NCBI GenBank assembly: GCA_013387215.1
Contig: WARW01000022.1
Span: forward strand, 238,417 to 302,416
DNA length: 64,000 nucleotides
Source: Patescibacteria group bacterium
Lineage (GTDB): Bacteria > Patescibacteriota > Microgenomatia > UBA12405
Direction of reading: 5' to 3'
The position numbers were made by a program, and so were the translations under genes. The notes beneath the pieces are model-generated. The model was not told the DNA's origin and did no database searches. It was given only the letters and a program-made list of their open reading frames with translations. This document shows, in pieces, positions 9,401 through 54,600 of this stretch; the stretch's first letter is position 1; each line of letters opens with the position of its first letter.

Positions 9401-10314
9401 TAAGTAGTTTGTGATGAATTTGTTGCCGTATTAGTTGGGGTTAAAGTTTTTGCCGAAGAACTGGCTGTTGGAGTTACAGTTTTAGTAGATTTTGCCGAAA
9501 CTGTGGCTAAACAAGTTCTACTAGTGCAAGTAATACTGCCATTGGTGCAGCTGCAAGCGTTGCAGCCGTCGCTAGCGACAAAATTTTGACCTTCATTATA
9601 GTGTTTATCGTTTAAGTCACAACCGGCCCCAGTTTGAACTGCAGTGGATGGAGTGGAAGTTATCTCTGGAGTACTGGTTTTTGTTAAATTTGTGACTGGC
9701 TTACTGCTAAAATTAGTATAGGCAAGAGCTGAGGCTACGCAGAGAAAAAGAATTAGTGAAAAAATGAAAAATATTTTTGGTATAGGACTTGCTTTTGGTG
9801 TTGGTGGCTCCACAGGAGGAACAAAGTCGGAAATTGGAGGAAGATCTGATTTAAAAGCAGGTTCAGGTTGAGGAGCTGGTGTTGGTTCAATAACTGGCTC
9901 TGGTTCAGGTATGGTTTCAACTGCTGGAGTGGAAATGGGTGCAGATTCAACAACAGGGGCTGGTGCGGCCTCAACTACTGGCGGATTGGTAACTGGAGTC
10001 AACACCTCTGCTTCATTTTCATTTTCATCAACTTCAATATTTTCATTCAAAACTAATTGTGGAGGAGGAGTTTCGAGAGACAAGACAGGCTCTTGAACTT
10101 TTGGCTGTTCAATTGGAGTTATAGGCGTTTCAGATACTGCTGGAGTTCCTTGGGTCACTGGAGAAACTGGATTTTCTGCTGGTTCTGGCGGGGCATTTTT
10201 AATCTCTTGAGCGTATTTATCTAAAATAGCTTGATATTGCTTATTGGCATCAATATTTTGATCTTCTTGATCACCTGGGACAGGATTAATATTATTCATA
10301 AATAAATATCTCAT
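9397..10314 (-). CDS. Proline-rich membrane protein with a C-terminal extracellular Cys-rich domain
   Basis: 305 aa. It has long P/E/V-rich low-complexity stretches, one TM helix (IFFIFSLILFLCVASALAY) and a C-terminal 8-Cys module (GAGCDLN...CNACSCTNGSITCTSRTC). Confidence 0.6.
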   Translation of the reverse strand: MRYLFMNNINPVPGDQEDQNIDANKQYQAILDKYAQEIKNAPPEPAENPVSPVTQGTPAVSETPITPIEQPKVQEPVLSLETPPPQLVLNENIEVDENENEAEVLTPVTNPPVVEAAPAPVVESAPISTPAVETIPEPEPVIEPTPAPQPEPAFKSDLPPISDFVPPVEPPTPKASPIPKIFFIFSLILFLCVASALAYTNFSSKPVTNLTKTSTPEITSTPSTAVQTGAGCDLNDKHYNEGQNFVASDGCNACSCTNGSITCTSRTCLATVSAKSTKTVTPTASSSAKTLTPTNTATNSSQTTY

Positions 10315-20629: not shown

Positions 20630-22423
20630 TTATTTTAAAACTGCATAAATTCGGCGCTTGCCACTTCCGGCGGATTCTTCTTTAGTTATTTCAAATGTTC
20701 CCAAAACATTAGTATTTTTAACATGAGGTCCAGTGCAGACTTCTTTAGAAAAATAAGTATCTTTTGAACCTATAGTAAAGACACTGACGGTTTCTGGATA
20801 TTTGCTGCCGAAGAAAGCCAAAGCACCTTGTTTTTGAGCTTCAACGAAAGGCATAGTTTCTTTAAGAACTGGAAGCGATAGCTGAATTTGTTGGTTTACT
20901 ATTTCCTGAACCTGTTTAATTTGTTCTTCAGTTAATTTGTCTGGATGTGAAAAATCAAAACGCAAACGTTCGGAAGTAATATTGGAACCAGATTGTTGGA
21001 CATGATCACCTAATACTTGTCTTAAAGCAGCGTGTAATAAATGGGTGGCGGTGTGATATTTGGTAATGATTTCAGAATTATCAGCTAAACCAGATTTAAA
21101 TTTACCAGCAGATAAAGTTTGAGAGAGTTTGACATGTTCTTCTTGGGATTGATTAAATTCTTCCCTATTTAAGGTTAAATTATTTTTTTGCAGCTCTTCT
21201 TCAATCATCTCGACCGGGAAACCAAAACTTTCATATAAGGTAAAAGCTTCTTTTCCGGACACCTGATGATTACGGGCAATTAATTTATTGATTTCATTTA
21301 GTCCCCGATCAAGGGTTTTTCGAAATTTATTTTCTTCAGCTTCCAAAATAGATAAAATTTTATCCCGGTTATCATTTAATTCGGGATAAGTGCCAGCATA
21401 ATTATCTTGATTGTCTAAAACAGTGCCGGCAATAATGGAACAAAAATTCTTATCAATTCCAATAGCTTTTCCTCGGCGAATTGTGCGGCGAATAAGACGG
21501 CGTAAAACATAGCCGGCTTCTTTATTGGATGGCTCAACTCCATCAGCGATTATAAAAACTGCTGATCGAAGATGGTCGGCGATTATACGAATTGATTTAT
21601 TATCAGGAGAATTTTTGTCTGCACCTGGTTCATAAGTCTTACCAGATAATTCTTCGATTTTTTTTATAATTGGCTGCCAAATTGATGATTGATAGTTATC
21701 AGAAAATCCCGAGAATATGGCAGCATTTCGTTCAACTCCAAGACCGGTATCAACATTTTTTTGAGGCATTTCGACATATTTACCAGTTTCATCTTTGTAA
21801 TATTGCATGAAAACATCATTCCAAACTTCAATAATTCTCCCCTGCTTGCAGCCTGTTTCAAAATCAATTTGACCTTCTTCTGGTTTAGTGTCGACAAACA
21901 TTTCAGAATCTGGACCACATGGGCCAACAGCGCCTGCTGGACCCCACCAATTATCTTTTTTAGGTAAATAATGGATTCTGTCTTCAGGAATGCCAAGCGA
22001 TAACCAGAGGTCGTGTGACTCGGTGTCTTTTGGAGCATCTTCGTCCCCGGCAAAACAAGTGACATGAAGATTCTTTGGATCCAAATTTAAAACTTTGGTT
22101 AAAAACTCATAACTCCATGGGATCATTTCTTTTTTGAAGTAATCACCCAAAGACCAGTTGCCTAACATTTCAAAAAAGGTGTGATGAAAAGTATCACCGA
22201 CATCATCAATATCGCCAGTTCGGACACATTTTTGAACATCGACGAGTCTTTTACCAAGCGGATGTGGCTGACCTAAAAGGAAAGGGACGAGAGGGTGCAT
22301 GCCGGCAGAAATAAAAAGAGTGGTGGGGTCGTTTTCAGGAATTAGACTGGCTGATGGAATTTCTTTATGACCTTTTGACACGAAAAAACTTACATATTTA
22401 TCTTTTAATTCTTTGGCGTTCAT
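20630..22423 (-). CDS. alaS: Alanine--tRNA ligase, a short form lacking the C-terminal C-Ala/oligomerisation region
   Basis: Class II catalytic core (FFVSKGHKEIPSASLIP, FISAGM, GDYFKKE) plus the editing-domain HxxxH (HTATHLLHAAL). It is 597 aa against ~870 for the canonical enzyme. Confidence 0.9.
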   Translation of the reverse strand: MNAKELKDKYVSFFVSKGHKEIPSASLIPENDPTTLFISAGMHPLVPFLLGQPHPLGKRLVDVQKCVRTGDIDDVGDTFHHTFFEMLGNWSLGDYFKKEMIPWSYEFLTKVLNLDPKNLHVTCFAGDEDAPKDTESHDLWLSLGIPEDRIHYLPKKDNWWGPAGAVGPCGPDSEMFVDTKPEEGQIDFETGCKQGRIIEVWNDVFMQYYKDETGKYVEMPQKNVDTGLGVERNAAIFSGFSDNYQSSIWQPIIKKIEELSGKTYEPGADKNSPDNKSIRIIADHLRSAVFIIADGVEPSNKEAGYVLRRLIRRTIRRGKAIGIDKNFCSIIAGTVLDNQDNYAGTYPELNDNRDKILSILEAEENKFRKTLDRGLNEINKLIARNHQVSGKEAFTLYESFGFPVEMIEEELQKNNLTLNREEFNQSQEEHVKLSQTLSAGKFKSGLADNSEIITKYHTATHLLHAALRQVLGDHVQQSGSNITSERLRFDFSHPDKLTEEQIKQVQEIVNQQIQLSLPVLKETMPFVEAQKQGALAFFGSKYPETVSVFTIGSKDTYFSKEVCTGPHVKNTNVLGTFEITKEESAGSGKRRIYAVLK

Positions 22424-22452
22424 AGGGAGATTATAACAATTCAGGATGAAAA

Positions 22453-26518: not shown

Positions 26519-26562
26519 AAAATCAGTATAACAATAAATTTATTGTTTTTATTAGATTGAGA

Positions 26563-28260
26563 TTATTTTAATTCGCCGATAATTTCTTTATCAGAAATTA
26601 TTTTTGATTCTGACTGATCGCGTTTTTTATACTCAATACCGCCTTTTTCAAGACTGCGCTTACTAATAACCAATCTAACAGGAATTCCAATCAAATCGGC
26701 ATCTGCAAATTTAGCGCCAGCAGTGACATCGTCCCGATCGTCATATAAAACATCAATATTATTTTTCTTGAGATTTTCGTACAAAGACTCGGCTTTAGCC
26801 TTGATTGATTCGTCGAATAAATCTAAACCCAACAAATGGACTTGGTATGGTGCAATTGATTCAGGCCAAATAATCCCCTTGTCATCATGATGAGTTTCGA
26901 TGATGGTAGAAATTGCCCGACCAATTCCAATGCCATATGAACCCATATAAAGTTTTTTCAAAGAGCCGTCTTTATCAACAAAGTTGCCATCCATCGGATT
27001 ACTATAAGTGTAGCCAATATTGAAAATATTACCGAATTCTACAGCTTTTATGAATCTTAATTTGCCTTTATGACATTTGGCACAGGTGTCTCCGACTTGG
27101 GCTTCAGCAATATCGCCGAAGAATTGGCACTCAAAATCGCGGCCATAATTTACATTAATTGAGTCAGTATCTTTTTGTTTTTGTCCGCCAATAAAATTAT
27201 GGACAGTTTTTAGCGATAAATCGCCAACGTAAACTGCATCGTGCCCCCAACAATGGACCCAACCAGATTTGGTACCTAATTTTTTTAGATCTTCATCGGT
27301 GGCTGGCTCGAGTTCGCCTTTAGCACCATAAACTTTTGCAAGTTTGGCGGGATTGACAGACAAATCTCCACGAATAACACCAATAACGATAGTGCCATCA
27401 GTATCTTTATAGACAACATTTTTTAAATAATGTTCTTTGGATTTGCCGTAATGTTTAATATTATCTTCCATGGTTTCCACCCATTCAGGTTGAGTAACTA
27501 TTTCCATGTCTTTAATTTCTTCATCAAGATTAATGTCTTTTCGATCAAATTGAGCGGTTTCTAAATTAGCAGCGTATCTGCATTCATCACACAAAGCGAT
27601 AGTATCTTCACCAACATCAGTTTCGACCATAAATTCGTGAGAAACTGCACCGCCAATGGCGCCATTATCGGATTCAACGACAATTACTTTTAGACCCAAT
27701 CTTTTGGCAATATTTTCATAGGCCACCCAATATTTTTGATAAGTTTCTTTTAAACTTTCTTCATTTTCATGAAAAGAATAAGCATCTTTCATGACAAATT
27801 CGCGGGTGCGCAAAAGACCGCCGGTTGGGCGAGCTTCATCGCGGAATTTTTGAGAGAACTGATAAATATTAATTGGCAAATCTTTGTAGGTAGGATTCAT
27901 TTGATTAACCAAATCCATCATGACCACTTCCGCAGTTGCACCCAAAGTAAATTCAGCTTCGTTTCTATCTTTAACCAACATCATTGAAGAACCAAACTTT
28001 TTATCGCGATTAGCTTTTTGCCAAAGTTCTAGAGGTTGAAGAGTTGGAACAATCAGTTCTTGAGCACCAGTTTTTTCGACTTCTTCACGAATTATATCTT
28101 CAACTTTTTTGGATACTTTAAAACCTAGAGGCAAAAAGGTGTAACGGCCAGCAGAAAGCATGCGGATAAAACCGCCTTGCAATAAAAGTTTATGACTAAC
28201 GGCTGTTGCTTGATTGCTAACAGTTTTACTAGTTTTTCCAAATAGTTTTGAATATCGCAT
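26563..28260 (-). CDS. proS: Proline--tRNA ligase, bacterial type with an editing insertion
   Basis: 565 aa with class II motifs and ProRS conservation. Confidence 0.93.
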   Translation of the reverse strand: MRYSKLFGKTSKTVSNQATAVSHKLLLQGGFIRMLSAGRYTFLPLGFKVSKKVEDIIREEVEKTGAQELIVPTLQPLELWQKANRDKKFGSSMMLVKDRNEAEFTLGATAEVVMMDLVNQMNPTYKDLPINIYQFSQKFRDEARPTGGLLRTREFVMKDAYSFHENEESLKETYQKYWVAYENIAKRLGLKVIVVESDNGAIGGAVSHEFMVETDVGEDTIALCDECRYAANLETAQFDRKDINLDEEIKDMEIVTQPEWVETMEDNIKHYGKSKEHYLKNVVYKDTDGTIVIGVIRGDLSVNPAKLAKVYGAKGELEPATDEDLKKLGTKSGWVHCWGHDAVYVGDLSLKTVHNFIGGQKQKDTDSINVNYGRDFECQFFGDIAEAQVGDTCAKCHKGKLRFIKAVEFGNIFNIGYTYSNPMDGNFVDKDGSLKKLYMGSYGIGIGRAISTIIETHHDDKGIIWPESIAPYQVHLLGLDLFDESIKAKAESLYENLKKNNIDVLYDDRDDVTAGAKFADADLIGIPVRLVISKRSLEKGGIEYKKRDQSESKIISDKEIIGELK

Positions 28261-28470
28261 AAGTTATTCTATATTAATTTTTATAACAAAAAAGCTCGTC
28301 ACTGCTCAGAAAATTATTTCTGAACAAGGACGAGCGTTGTCGTGGTACCACCTTGTTTCGATTAAATAAATTTAATCCTTAAAAATTTTACGGTTGTTTC
28401 CGGAACTACTTTCGTAGTCAGCTCCACGGCGGGATACCGTTTCTCAGCTTTGGAAATATTATAGCATGGA
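28261..28470 (-). promoter_or_regulatory. Putative T-box riboswitch leader, with terminator and antiterminator, upstream of proS
   Basis: On the minus strand, AACAAGGUGGUACCACGA (revcomp of 28340-28357) is close to the T-box consensus AAUUAGGGUGGUACCGCG. A terminator hairpin at 28294-28335 is followed by a U-run (A-run 28288-28293 on plus). AACAAGG can pair with CCUUGUU of the terminator 5' arm, which leaves a UGGUACC bulge of the kind that pairs with the tRNA NCCA end. A candidate -10 TATAAT lies at 28458-28463. Confidence 0.5.
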
Positions 28471-28485
28471 GAATTTAGAAAGAAA

Positions 28486-28521
28486 AAAGGTGGTAAAAAC
28501 CATTAAAGATTTGTACCACCT
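28486..28521 (-). terminator. Rho-independent terminator for the gene at 28543..29037
   Basis: Hairpin with arms AAGGTGGTA/TACCACCTT and a 17-nt loop, followed on the minus strand by TTTTTTTC. Confidence 0.5.
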
Positions 28522-28542
28522 TGGCAGAAAATTACAGAAAAG

Positions 28543-29037
28543 TTAAATTTGGCTTAAACAGTCAAAAATGAACTGGACAATGAGTTCTAGAGTTTTTTCC
28601 AGATCAGCGCCAGCAAGGTTTATAAGCCTAAAAGTTTTTGTGATTTCAGCGAATTTAAAAACGACAGTTTCTGAATCGGAATAAATCTTAAGAACTCCTT
28701 TTCCGTAAAGTGATATAGCACCCAAATCGAGACAATAATACCTGCCAAATACATATTCAATAATCTCAAAATTAAAGGTTTTATCTTCGCAAACATATGC
28801 GTCGGTTTTATCGAGTATCTCAGTTCTTTGATCTTTCATTTTGTCAATAAAATACTTCTTACCTGGATCAACATCTTTGGATTCAAGAGGATAACCGCAG
28901 TTGAGGAAGTCAACCATGGTTTCAAGAGCCTCCCGGGCATAGATACATCCAAGTATTTCTTTACCTTTCTGAGCACTTGCCACATTATTCTGATAGCTTT
29001 TTTCTATAAGCATAACTAATTTGCTTATGTCTGACAT
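28543..29037 (-). CDS. Hypothetical protein
   Basis: 164-aa ORF with its own terminator downstream and no recognisable motif. Confidence 0.5.
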   Translation of the reverse strand: MSDISKLVMLIEKSYQNNVASAQKGKEILGCIYAREALETMVDFLNCGYPLESKDVDPGKKYFIDKMKDQRTEILDKTDAYVCEDKTFNFEIIEYVFGRYYCLDLGAISLYGKGVLKIYSDSETVVFKFAEITKTFRLINLAGADLEKTLELIVQFIFDCLSQI

Positions 29038-37368: not shown

Positions 37369-37417
37369 ATGTTAATTATAGGTAATCCAAACTAAAGTAG
37401 AAAGAAGCTTTTAGGCT

Positions 37418-38599: not shown

Positions 38600-40039
38600 T
38601 TAAGTCTTATAGGATATTATAACATCATTTAGCTTAAAATCAATATAAGGCTTAAAAGTCATGCCACATTCTCCGCCAGATTTGACTTTATCGACAACTT
38701 GCTTGCCAAGTCTGATTCCTTCGACTTTAGTATCTTTTATTATCTTTCCATCACGTTTTATATGGATAAGGTCACCTTTGGAAATTTCACCTTTAGTGCA
38801 TTGGACACCTGCAATTCTGACTTTATCAATTTTGAATTCAGCTTTAATTAGACCTTCACCAAGAACGGTTTCATCGATGGTAGGTTCAAGTAAATGTAAG
38901 ACTTGAGATTGAATATCTTCAATTATTTCGTAGATAATTCGAGATTTAAAGACACGAACCTTGGAGCTTTCGGCTAATTTTTCAATATGAGTGGGAACGT
39001 TAACATTGAAGGCAAATATTTGAGATCTGGTGGTTTCGCCTAAAAATACATCATTGTCAGAAACAGCGCCAATACCTGAGGAGACAACTACCACATCGTC
39101 AGAAAAACTGTGTTCTAGAGCTTCTAAAGTACCCTTAACATCGGCTTTTAAGATAACATTTAGCTTTGGAGTTTCCTCGATACTGGAATTTGTTGGAACA
39201 ACGTCTTTTTTCCGAGTTTCTTCGCAAGCACGCTTGTCTGGAGTAACGACACTGCCTACAGCAGGCACAGTTTCAAAACCAAGAACTTCGACTGGAGTGC
39301 TTGGGACAGCTTCTTTAATAAGCTTGCCAGTATAATCAATCATAGCTTTAACTTTACAAGCAATATCGTCGGCATAAACAATGTCACCCACACGAAGAGT
39401 GCCTTGTTTAACAATCAATGAAGCTACTGGACCACGATTCTTATCCAGCTTGGATTCAATGACAACTGCTTCAACGCAATCGCTTGGGTCGCCGCTTAAA
39501 TCCATAACTTCAGCATTCAATAAGATTTCTTCGAGAAGTTTATCGATTCCTAGGCCAGTTCGAGCGGAAACAGGAATAAGCGGAGTTTGACCACCATATT
39601 CTTCAGGAGTAAAACCAAGTTCAACCAGTTGACCTTTAACTTTGTCAGGCATAGCACCTTCCAAATCCATTTTATTCATGGCGACAATAAAAGGAAGGTC
39701 AGATTTTTTGATAAGTTCCAAACTTTCTTTGGTTTGAGGCATGATGCCTTCAGTGGCAGCAACAACCAAAACCACAATATCGGTTACTTGAGCACCACGA
39801 GCCCGCATGTTGCCAAAAGCAGCGTGTCCAGGAGTATCAATAAAGGTGATTAATTTTTCTTGACCATCAGAAGTTTTGACAGTAGCCTGATATGCACCGA
39901 TATGTTGAGTAATTCCACCAGCTTCTTTTTTGGTAATACTAGTTGATCTGATTCGATCGAGAAGCGAAGTTTTACCATGGTCGATGTGACCCATAACTGC
40001 AACAATAGGTGGTCTGATAGGGGTTTTATTATCGGTCAT
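38600..40039 (-). CDS. infB: Translation initiation factor IF-2, a short form lacking the N-terminal region
   Basis: GTPase G1 AVMGHIDHGKTSLLD, DTPGH, and NKMD. Confidence 0.93.
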   Translation of the reverse strand: MTDNKTPIRPPIVAVMGHIDHGKTSLLDRIRSTSITKKEAGGITQHIGAYQATVKTSDGQEKLITFIDTPGHAAFGNMRARGAQVTDIVVLVVAATEGIMPQTKESLELIKKSDLPFIVAMNKMDLEGAMPDKVKGQLVELGFTPEEYGGQTPLIPVSARTGLGIDKLLEEILLNAEVMDLSGDPSDCVEAVVIESKLDKNRGPVASLIVKQGTLRVGDIVYADDIACKVKAMIDYTGKLIKEAVPSTPVEVLGFETVPAVGSVVTPDKRACEETRKKDVVPTNSSIEETPKLNVILKADVKGTLEALEHSFSDDVVVVSSGIGAVSDNDVFLGETTRSQIFAFNVNVPTHIEKLAESSKVRVFKSRIIYEIIEDIQSQVLHLLEPTIDETVLGEGLIKAEFKIDKVRIAGVQCTKGEISKGDLIHIKRDGKIIKDTKVEGIRLGKQVVDKVKSGGECGMTFKPYIDFKLNDVIISYKT

Positions 40040-51640: not shown

Positions 51641-54600
51641 TTATTTTAACAAGGCATGAAGGTCTTGGTCATCACGACAATCTTCGCCAAGAGAATTAAA
51701 TTCGAGGTTTATAATTTTTTTATAGATATCCTTGATTAGAGTTTCCAATTCTTTTATCTGCTCTTCAGTAATTTTGAAATCTTTTTTGACAAAATTATTT
51801 TTAAGCTTGCTTTTTTGAACAAAATCAATCGACCCTGAGACAACATTATATTTAAAGTTAGGATTATTATCGGCTAAGATTTTATAGAAAACTAATTGGC
51901 GGAAATATTCTCCATTTTCTTTTAGTTCTTTTGATTTAGTATCGGGATTACCAGTTTTGAAATCCACCACATTGGCATCGGGCTTACCATTACTATTCAT
52001 CCCTAGTACTTCAATTTTGTCGATTTTACCAGTTAAAGGAATATCTCCCAGATGAACATGGTCGTGGCTGAAATCGTATTCAGTTACGCAATCGCAATCA
52101 AAAGTGTCTTTGTAATTTTGATAATAAGAGGCCAAAATTTCCTGACCACGGCTTAAACTTTCAGAAAATTCCAAATGGCTTAAATTTTCTCTTAATAAAT
52201 ATTTATTAAATGAATTTAATAAATCAGCTTCGGAAATTAGTTTTTTGGTTTCTTTTAGTTTGTCGAAAAGATAAGATAATGAGTTGTGAACAGCCGTACC
52301 TAGGGCGGAATGTTTATTTTTTAGAGCAGGGATTCTTAAAATAGTTTTATGATAAAAACACCATGGACAACGTAGATAAGAATTGAGATGAGTGACATTA
52401 AATTTGTATTCATTGGTTAAATACCAACGTAAATATTTTTCCAGTTGATTATCGGTGATAAACGGTTTTGGATCCAAAGGCATTGAGGCAAGCAGTGCCA
52501 ACTTTTCAATATTGGGATCGGCCACTACATTTTCAATTGATTCAGGATTAATTTCGGAGGCAAAAAGTGAGGGAATCTGATCGCGGCCAGAATCGCTTTT
52601 GCAGGAGAAAGAGATATAAACTTGGTTTTTAGCCCGAGTCAGAGCCACATAAAATAATCTTCTTTCATCTTCATTTTCGTCGATTGCCTGGCGCAAGAGT
52701 TCAGTTTTTAAGATTCCATATGGCAAACGGATGTTGCTAAATTGAGTATTATTTCCCCACTTTTTATCAACACATTTGATTAAAAATACATGTTCAAATT
52801 CCAAACCTTTAGACCGATGTGTGGTCATAATGTTTATGGCATCTTCATATTCAGAGTTAAGTTCAGGTGCTGACAAGGGAATTTTATTTTCAACTAATAG
52901 GTTTATTCGAGCAATGAATTGAGGCAAATCGTAGTTTTTAGTGAGAGAAAGTCGTTTTAGTTCAGAGTAAAAAACATTTAAATGGTTAATAACAAAAAAG
53001 TCATTTAAGCTTAATATATAACTTAGATAACCGAATTTACGGATAAATTTATTATAAAAAGTATCCAGACTATAGTTATCTAGCCATTTGATGGCTTTGG
53101 CCATTCTGACAGAAAAATTGCTGATTTTAGTAATAGTGCTAGGACGAAGTTTAGGACTAATTAGCAACAATTTTTCTTTGTCGGCAATTAATTCCGAAAG
53201 ACTTATATGTTCATGATAAGCAAAACGTAAAATCTTTAAAAGATCATAAGAATTAATATTGAGGAAATCAAAAGATAGAATATGAAAAAGAACGTTGTCA
53301 TCGGAAGGATTGTTGACATAAGCCAGAAGCTTAATTAATTGCTGAATCCGAACATCTTCCAAAATATTTTCTCCGAAACCAAGATGATATTTAATCCCAA
53401 GATTGGTTAATGTTTCAACAAGATCAATAATATCGCTGTTATTTCTGACCAGAACCGCAATTTCACTGGGCTTAGTTCCTGATTCAATTAATTTTTTAAT
53501 TTTATTAGCAACGTAATAGTTTTCTTCCAAAACACTTTTGGCTTGAAATAAATTTATGGGAGTCGGGTCAAAAGTTTTGCTAGAGACTAGGGATTTGTCG
53601 AGGTTTTCAATAAAATTGGCAATACGATTTTTATTATTATCGATGACGGATTTTGAAGAATCCAAAATTAATTGGTGGCTGCGATAATTATTTTTAAGAA
53701 CAATCAGTTTAATTTGAGCTTTGTATAAAAGATAGAATTCATAAATATTTTCGATAGCGGCACCTTGGAATCGAAAAATTGATTGATCATCATCACCGAC
53801 CACAAAAAGATTAGGATTTTCAAAATAAGAACCAAGAAGATGAATTATTTGGTTTTGAGCCGAATTGGTGTCCTGATATTCGTCGACCAAAATATATTGA
53901 AATCTTTCTTGATAAGAAGCCAAGAGATCTTTGTTTTCTTTGAATTGATTTAAGACAAATAAGATCATGTCATCAAAATCGTAACGGCCACGTTTTTTGA
54001 GCTCAGCTTGATATTCAGTGTATATATTTAATAATTCAAATTGTTTAGGAATATCTTTGGCTAGATTTTCGAAATATTTTATTAAAGCGTTTTTGTAGTT
54101 AACGGCCGGACTTTTAGCAGCACCAATATCGTAAAATCCATTTTTATAGAGTTCTTGATAATAGTTAATTAGGGCAAAAATAGAGGGGAACTTGGAGGCA
54201 ATTTTTTTGGCATTTTCAACAATCGGCAAAAGTTCCGATTCTAGACTTTTACTGGCTTTTAGAGCTTTGATTTGGCAATAAACATCGTTGGTTAAATCTA
54301 AATATTTTTTTTGATCATTAATTAAAGTTTCGAGTTTTGCTGGAATAATATTTTCTCTTTTTAAAGTTTGAATACAAGAAATGATGTCGCGCTGATAATA
54401 AAAATGATCGCCCCAAGGTTTTAAAATTGAACCGTCTTTGAGATTTTCAATTATATTTTGGATTATTTCAATTTTTTCCAGTTCTTCCAGAGAATCAATA
54501 TCTTTTGCAAAGATAAATGATTCCGGATTAGTTTTAATGACTTCGTTGCAAAAAGAATGGAAGGTGTGGATTTTAATACTATAGGCAACTGGACCAATAA

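Follow-up and report, generated by a model that had tools for sequence, protein, structure and literature searches.

Transcriptional T-boxes are held to need a platform that binds the tRNA elbow for rapid capture of tRNA, according to a review of the family (PMC7583486), and the smallest well-studied transcriptional T-box is that of glyQS. The same review argues that a specifier made of G and C only lessens the need for auxiliary stabilisation, and describes structures of ileS T-boxes with a short Stem I in which the K-turn, Stem II and Stem IIA/B build the anticodon pocket. These US ileS T-boxes, a class that goes back to Sherwood et al. (2015), are described here after PMC7583486 and a 2023 preprint (bioRxiv 10.1101/2023.02.28.530422); according to the preprint every US T-box regulates ileS, and a 2026 review keeps the same description of the class. 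The TBDB collection draws on Rfam-type hits and on a class II search restricted to Actinobacteria, and we found no literature linking T-boxes with CPR or Patescibacteria.

Here we describe the leader of a prolyl-tRNA synthetase gene in a 64-kb stretch of DNA, referred to below in its entirety as the window. We consider it likely that this leader works as a miniature T-box, specific for proline, and acts by transcription attenuation.

The proS leader and its match to the T-box model

The proS gene encodes a bacterial-type prolyl-tRNA synthetase (ProRS) with the Pfam domains tRNA-synt_2b (class II core), tRNA_edit (editing insertion) and HGTP_anticodon (anticodon-binding). A small unannotated ORF upstream is closed by a hairpin and T-run, and is followed by the leader, whose U-tract is separated from the proS ATG (28260) by 27 A/T-rich bases (Table 1). 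The folding z-score of the 210-nt leader is -4.9. Judged by sequence, proS is the gene that the T-box leader is predicted to regulate.

Table 1. Coordinates of the proS locus in the window, and the downstream contexts of four related leaders on other contigs.
Feature	Coordinates	Strand	Description
proS	26563..28260	minus	565 aa, bacterial-type ProRS
Small unannotated upstream ORF	28543..29037		164 aa, no Pfam match
Hairpin and T-run closing the upstream ORF	28522..28483	minus	
Candidate promoter P1	28458..28466	minus	extended -10 TGCTATAAT, 6 nt 5' of the CCAAAGC leader start
Leader	28453..28288	minus	166 nt, CCAAAGC...GACGAGCUUUUUU
RF00230 match	28454..28323	minus	model positions 1-219
Ultrashort Stem I	28420..28451	minus	basal helix AGC/GCU, K-turn, 4-bp helix ACGG/CCGU, 7-nt loop
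Terminal specifier loop	28430..28436	minus	UAUCCCG; putative specifier CCC 28433..28431, then purine G 28430
Mini Stem II	28405..28418	minus	hairpin ACUAC-GAAA-GUAGU, aligned to RF00230 Stem II (cmscan)
Stem IIA and F-box-like CCGUAA	28388..28402	minus	CGG-AAACAA-CCG (RF00230 alignment)
AAG purines, Stem III and 3' AA motif	28360..28380	minus	GAUUAAA-UUUA-UUUAAUC, then GAAAC (cmscan)
Antiterminator	28324..28356	minus	A1 (CAAGG/CCUUG), 7-nt bulge UGGUACC (28350..28344), A2 (ACGA/UCGU); cmscan posterior ~1.0
Conserved T-box sequence	28354..28340	minus	AAGGUGGUACCACGA
Intrinsic terminator	28288..28335	minus	48 nt, hairpin of 7+11 bp and U6; the 5' arm doubles as the antiterminator's 3' strand
Candidate promoter P2	28266..28271	minus	-10-like TAGAAT at -11, 5 nt ahead of the proS ATG, leaderless-type
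L036	1198-2380	minus	T-box and terminator ahead of a 324-aa protein with no Pfam match
L066			contig ends downstream of the T-box
L083			bacterial-type proS downstream; neighbouring 6PGDH with CPR-named relatives only
L115			archaeal-type proS downstream; nearest named relatives Shapirobacteria, Brennerbacteria, Woesebacteria

The RF00230 covariance model matches the leader with 59.7 bits (cmscan), at an E-value of 1.2e-12 in a local scan and of 1.8e-10 over the entire 64 kb, far beyond chance. The T-box-like sequence AACAAGGTGGTACCACGA, which the first-pass annotation had quoted, lies at 28357..28340 (minus strand). At E-value thresholds this is the single T-box match in the window. The Rfam gathering cut-off for RF00230 is 93 bits, so that E-value thresholds are needed for the match to appear, and a scan of the window at the default gathering threshold reported nothing. 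The low score is due to Stem I, where 6-7 nt stand in place of about 75 model positions, with the remainder of the model aligning well: posteriors are high for the K-turn, Stem II, IIA and F-box, the AAG-Stem III-AA segment, A1, the UGGUACC bulge and A2. Held against the covariance model, the earlier reading is thus borne out as a real match and falls short in score, most of Stem I being missing. A search of the window for GGTGGTACCRCG-N(4-30)-CGYCC gave a single occurrence against 0.00 expected (100 shuffles). By sequence homology, we conclude, the element clearly belongs to the T-box superfamily.

The first-pass annotation had also raised the leaders of other aminoacyl-tRNA synthetase genes; in the window none beyond that of proS resembles a T-box, and alaS (20630..22423) has a leaderless-type promoter only. 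Its product AlaRS (20630-22423) has 597 aa and no C-terminal C-Ala region, and both this enzyme and IF-2 (38600-40039, 479 aa) are far shorter than is typical for bacteria. A weak, sub-threshold match to the Rfam entry n00280 at 52597-52696 (minus; 34 bits against a gathering threshold of 65, E 0.12) lies inside an AddA-like helicase gene and most likely reflects similarity of coding sequence, not an sRNA. The sequence AAGGTGGTAC (11 nt including the preceding C) occurs twice in the 64 kb against 0.03 expected, at 28345-28354 (minus) in the T-box and, 170 nt away, at 28513-28522 as the 5' arm of the hairpin that terminates the upstream ORF; the repeat may be a local duplication. The 3' arm of that upstream terminator, UACCACCUU, would complement the T-box sequence in a read-through transcript.

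Six related leaders, their specifier and their switch

Five copies of the leader were found beyond the window, L002 by way of its ProRS and L036, L066, L083 and L115 by a DNA pattern scan of metagenomes, which holds at least four family members among the 120 matches listed; among these listed matches one canonical T-box of a gut Firmicute predominates. The family evidence comes from six sequences. For the four found by pattern, the query itself demanded UCCCR, AGCUG and GGUGGUACCRCG, and conservation of these motifs is independent evidence in the window and L002 only. The query put no constraint on the helices, on the K-turn's 5' strand, on F-box and AAG, or on promoters and terminators. The gene downstream is proS in four of the five members for which it is known, and bacterial-type and archaeal-type enzymes are both represented; the protein gene behind L036 may be proline-related as well. 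At least three of the five further copies come from CPR contigs, and the source organisms of all six span 36-54% GC. With RF00230 the other five members score 43.8-69.2 bits, all under 93; all six copies being sub-threshold in Rfam, standard annotation systematically misses such T-boxes. With a model of the family itself (R1) the members reach 113-142 bits, whereas no canonical Pro T-box exceeds 46 bits.

All six sequences have the 4-bp helix of Stem I, the mini Stem II, IIA with the F-box and the T-box bulge, and their helices covary. The model-fitted alignment has 94% of its cells paired, and double changes occur in 10 of 25 pairs against 4.0±1.4 in column shuffles, none of 500 shuffles reaching 10. 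When the 3' partners are shifted by 1-3 columns in either direction, pairing falls to 33-48%. RNAalifold, given an unfitted MAFFT alignment, recovered the same helices, including the 4-bp helix of Stem I.

Stem I is reduced to its base. The strands of the K-turn, UGA-GA-A opposite G-GA (GC-UGA-GA-A / G-GA-GC), fit the RF00230 consensus (cmscan) and are separated by 15 nt only; in each of the six members 75-76 RF00230 Stem I positions have shrunk to 6-7 nt, and AG bulge, distal loop and tRNA-elbow platform are all missing. The K-turn is kept in five members, L002 having A·A at one position. Two pairs of the Stem I helix, 14-28 and 15-27 in our alignment, show compensatory changes among members (AU/CG/GC/GU and CG/GC). 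Of the Stem I that the first-pass annotation had called for, the K-turn can be built, and the specifier sits in a 7-nt terminal loop instead of an internal specifier loop; RNAalifold offers as an alternative a loop of 5 nt closed by U·G.

This loop reads U(U/A)UCCCG, with CCC-G identical, in all six members, a conservation independent of the search pattern in the window and L002 only. The earlier suggestion of a Pro specifier among CCC and CCG triplets is confirmed to the extent that CCC, followed by a purine, lies upstream of proS in the window, and the specifier matches the regulated gene in the four members that have proS. CCC is the rarest Pro codon here (3.3 per 1000), and CCU is common; T-box specifiers prefer C in the third position, which CCC fits (PMC7583486). 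CCC sits 4 bp above the K-turn, at a spacing equal to that of canonical long-Stem-I Pro T-boxes, of which L053 (proS) and L099 (proC) read UCCCA or UUUCCCA-N4-GGAGCUG. In its sequence the proS leader looks like a canonical Pro T-box stripped of all that lies beyond the specifier loop.

A functional T-box that senses some other tRNA, for example Ile through the AUC in UAUCCCG or Ser through UCC, would be an alternative reading of the same loop, and one can point to the use of AUC as specifier by every ultrashort T-box known and to UCC being conserved in six of six loops. However, AUC is missing from the other five loops (UUUCCCG), a purine follows CCC only, as the T-box rule demands, and the downstream genes are mostly proS; moreover, the canonical proS and proC T-boxes carry UCCCA or UUUCCCA at equal distance from the K-turn. 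We regard a tRNA other than tRNA-Pro as highly improbable and rejected the Ile and Ser specifiers, AUC being unconserved, CCC alone preceding a purine, and proS lying downstream.

The GNRA hairpin ACTACGAAAGTAGT that the first-pass annotation had noticed stands at 28418..28405 as it was quoted, and its identity is to be corrected to the Stem II of a T-box: four of its five pairs show changes on both sides, and RNAalifold adds two further covarying pairs, with no canonical S-turn recognisable. Stem IIA is conserved among members, with one CG swap (L002), and is accompanied by an F-box, CCGU(U/A)A. A IIB pseudoknot may form between the IIA loop and UUU (about 28390-28384); in five of six members a complement of 3-4 nt between the IIA loop and downstream sequence stands at an equal offset (5-6 nt), as AUCU/AGAU, GUCU/AGAC or CAGC/GCUG, none of them individually better than shuffles. 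All six members, as read by eye, continue with AAG, a helix of 5-7 bp unrelated in sequence from member to member, and NAA.

The antiterminator and terminator bear out what the first-pass annotation had proposed, namely a UGGNACC core forming the antiterminator bulge and a terminator that excludes it. The core is UGGUACC, placed between A1 and A2; the terminator GCTCGTCCTTGTTCAG...CTGAGCAGTGACGAGC with T6 was found at 28335..28288 (minus); and the two structures compete for one strand, CUCGUCCUUGU, the antiterminator alone having -7.1 kcal/mol and the terminator form -29.1 kcal/mol (RNAfold). Four other complete members have the same geometry, their corresponding hairpins folding at -23 to -29 kcal/mol and all ending in U6. 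Pairs in both A1 and A2 covary among members. At the bottom of A2 (pair 133-166) five members have A-U and L115 has G-C, with no G·U in any; in canonical T-boxes this pair is a G·U wobble, which has been assigned the role of sensing the aminoacyl group sterically. ACCACG is also found in some canonical T-boxes retrieved by the DNA pattern scan. With these features and the Pro specifier in place, the earlier reading of a T-box leader ahead of proS is supported.

No Shine-Dalgarno motif was found within or after the terminator hairpin of the proS leader, and this, together with a hairpin followed by U6, marks the expression platform as transcriptional. The rival reading is translational: a class II-like T-box, ultrashort, whose hairpin would sequester the ribosome-binding site, as in actinobacterial ileS. 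Precedent speaks for it, since the literature has so far placed an ultrashort Stem I in translational T-boxes only. Yet U6 follows the hairpin immediately in five of five complete members, the ATG in the window comes 27 nt past the U-tract with no Shine-Dalgarno to sequester, and the terminators are far more stable than the antiterminator, as in class I T-boxes. On the strength of the U6 tract and the missing Shine-Dalgarno motif we rejected translational control, for which we see very little chance.

Promoters, host and distribution of the leader

The leader has what looks like its own promoter. Transcription would start at P1, whose counterpart in each of the other five members is a -10 hexamer 5-8 nt ahead of AAAGC, joined in four of them by a -35 of TTGAC type. 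A promoter and terminator scan found neither P1 nor the terminator, a failure attributable to the weak -35 and to a terminator loop or stem beyond the limits of the scan.

The earlier reading of the leader has to be amended in a further respect, as it omitted the putative leaderless-type promoter P2 between terminator and ATG. Relatives that have no T-box carry TATAAT or TAAAAT 5-6 nt ahead of the proS ATG, and a leaderless-type element also lies downstream of the T-box terminator in L002 and L115. Such elements recur in the window: TAnnnT starts exactly at -12 in 10 of 41 ORFs against a background of about 1.6 per position (-10-like examples are alaS 22424-22435, ftsK 26519-26530 and pnp 37369-37380), and Shine-Dalgarno motifs are rare among window ORFs. 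These patterns suggest wide use of leaderless mRNAs by this CPR genome, and the T-box probably adds inducible, leadered proS transcripts on top of a basal leaderless one.

The earlier suspicion of a CPR-like genome is supported: Candidatus Shapirobacteria MAGs provide the closest genome loci, and the named ProRS homologues all belong to Shapirobacteria or a 'Patescibacteria group'. The G+C content of the window is 32-38%. Eight related loci (L001, L004-L007, L009-L011) are titled 'uncultured Gammaproteobacteria bacterium', with ProRS 62-79% identical to that of the window and shared synteny; these MAG records are probably mislabelled, given that the named relatives are all Shapirobacteria or Patescibacteria.

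Among 12 related Shapirobacteria proS loci (GTDB) the leader is present in one, L002 (UBA1435); in the other 11, proS follows rnj or another gene after 14-25 nt, with no leader. No leader was found at the four closest proS homologues (78-85% identity) or on any of the five contigs recovered for the closest and other near homologues, and no T-box at ten ProRS-homologue loci (L134-L143; six bacterial-type, four archaeal-type). Conservation of the T-box element in orthologous leaders, on which the first-pass annotation had made its claim depend, therefore divides: the leader is mostly absent, and where present it conserves motifs and helices, with covariation.

Two of these relatives, L008 (about 2930-2990) and L139 (1344-1437), have a terminator-only hairpin ahead of proS, followed by a leaderless-type promoter; the arms show 74% column identity with the T-box terminator of the window. 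In sequence these terminators look like relics after loss of the aptamer, and repeated loss would fit. The rnj-proS gap is itself a hot spot of insertion among close relatives (L134-L138, L142; rnj-proS-ftsK neighbourhood), holding small genes for an acetyltransferase, an AP endonuclease and a DUF3788 protein, and in the window the 164-aa ORF. In L142 an archaeal-type ProRS occupies the slot between rnj and ftsK, an in-place displacement of the bacterial-type enzyme.

Several observations count against a functional reading of the proS leader: a score of 59.7 under the cut-off of 93, an A2 base pair other than G·U, no S-turn, a promoter-like element downstream, a read-through leader without a Shine-Dalgarno motif, and closest orthologues that lack the leader altogether. 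A rival reading is a decaying T-box, descended from one with a normal long Stem I, whose distal Stem I has been deleted, that captures no tRNA and whose terminator serves the upstream gene, proS being expressed solely from the proximal leaderless promoter. The sporadic distribution, with absence from 11 of the 12 GTDB loci and all five homologue contigs, would agree with such decay, as would the terminators left alone in L008 and L139, the P2-like element and the replaced G·U sensor pair. Against it, six copies from hosts of 36-54% GC keep every functional motif, including K-turn, F-box and flanking purines; each has its own promoter at a fixed distance; compensatory changes maintain the helices, which is not expected of a dead element; and the truncated architecture recurs ahead of two non-homologous types of ProRS. 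On balance we consider a relic improbable, though better placed than the translational reading or a tRNA other than tRNA-Pro.

We give roughly even odds to a wider proposition, namely that the six leaders form an unrecognised class of T-box (about 130 nt, with ultrashort Stem I, Pro specificity and transcription termination) that is native to Patescibacteria/CPR, was probably ancestral to Shapirobacteria proS, and was then lost repeatedly, leaving terminator-only relics.

Proposed mechanism and comparison with known T-boxes

If the leader is a functional proline-specific T-box, transcription would begin at P1 (TGCTATAAT), and the nascent RNA would fold the K-turn and 4-bp helix so that the 7-nt terminal loop displays CCC and then a purine. 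The mini Stem II and IIA/B would dock beside this loop to make an anticodon pocket for tRNA-Pro, most likely with anticodon GGG; with no distal Stem I platform, the tRNA elbow would be left uncontacted. Were the tRNA uncharged, its 3' ACCA would pair with UGGU of the bulge and stabilise the weak antiterminator (about -7 kcal/mol), so that RNA polymerase would read through into proS. Were the tRNA charged or absent, the terminator of about -29 kcal/mol would form and transcription would stop at the U6 tract (28288). P2, directly 5' of the ATG, would give basal proS expression, to which the T-box would add starvation-inducible transcripts. The discriminator of bacterial tRNA-Pro is A73, which the UGGU of the bulge fits. 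ARAGORN found no tRNA genes in the window or in 16 loci, so that we infer the anticodon and discriminator base of the tRNA-Pro. Homology of sequence and structure, covariation and the association with proS are shown directly, whereas tRNA binding and identity, read-through and promoter activity at P1 and P2 are likewise inferred.

The significance for the field of RNA regulation hinges on responsiveness to tRNA. If our reading is true, tRNA is sensed co-transcriptionally without an elbow platform, against the current generalisation; a conserved, terminator-coupled ultrashort T-box would be a natural counter-example through which the kinetic argument for the platform becomes directly testable. 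Among the aminoacyl-tRNA synthetase genes of CPR, proS would also become the first with a defined regulatory RNA mechanism, here layered on a leaderless basal promoter, and the T-box would be a concrete sensor of amino-acid starvation in Patescibacteria, whose regulation is almost uncharted. With aptamer and discriminator in about 130 nt, it offers a very small natural scaffold for structures and for engineered tRNA-responsive switches.

What is new here is an ultrashort, Pro-specific, terminator-coupled T-box in CPR. With canonical class I T-boxes (RF00230; Bacillus tyrS, Firmicutes proS/proBA) the proS leader shares the K-turn with codon and purine 4 bp above it, a Stem II hairpin, IIA with F-box and a putative IIB, the AAG-Stem III-AA segment, the UGGNACC bulge, and a terminator/antiterminator switch with U-tract upstream of an aminoacyl-tRNA synthetase gene. 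It differs from them in lacking the AG bulge, distal loop and interdigitated T-loop elbow platform, in a specifier held in a terminal loop, in a Stem II that is a hairpin of 5-6 bp, in A-U for G·U at the base of A2, in its sub-threshold score, and in a host from CPR, not Firmicutes; with no elbow platform and a score under the threshold, it is outside canonical class I. Two canonical long-Stem-I Pro T-boxes came to light beside the family, at L053 4082-4224 (archaeal-type proS) and L099 about 9618-9760 (proC), the former also with a small GC-GAUGA-GC Stem II as in the mini T-boxes. From their sequences, a canonical Pro T-box of this type is the likely ancestor of the mini form.

The resemblance to the US ileS T-boxes of Actinobacteria lies in a very short Stem I, an apical-loop specifier, no contact with the elbow, and retention of K-turn, Stem II and a putative IIA/B pseudoknot, which presumably compensate at the anticodon pocket. 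The US T-boxes, however, combine ileS and AUC with Shine-Dalgarno sequestration in Actinobacteria, whereas the proS family combines CCC with a terminator and U6 in Patescibacteria; amino acid, expression platform and phylum all differ, and the leader is for these reasons outside that class too. Like the glyQS T-box, finally, it is compact, transcription-terminating, placed ahead of an aminoacyl-tRNA synthetase gene and equipped with a G/C-only specifier (GGC in glyQS, CCC here), but glyQS has a long Stem I with elbow platform and neither Stem II nor IIA/B, and the proS mini T-box appears to be the reverse.
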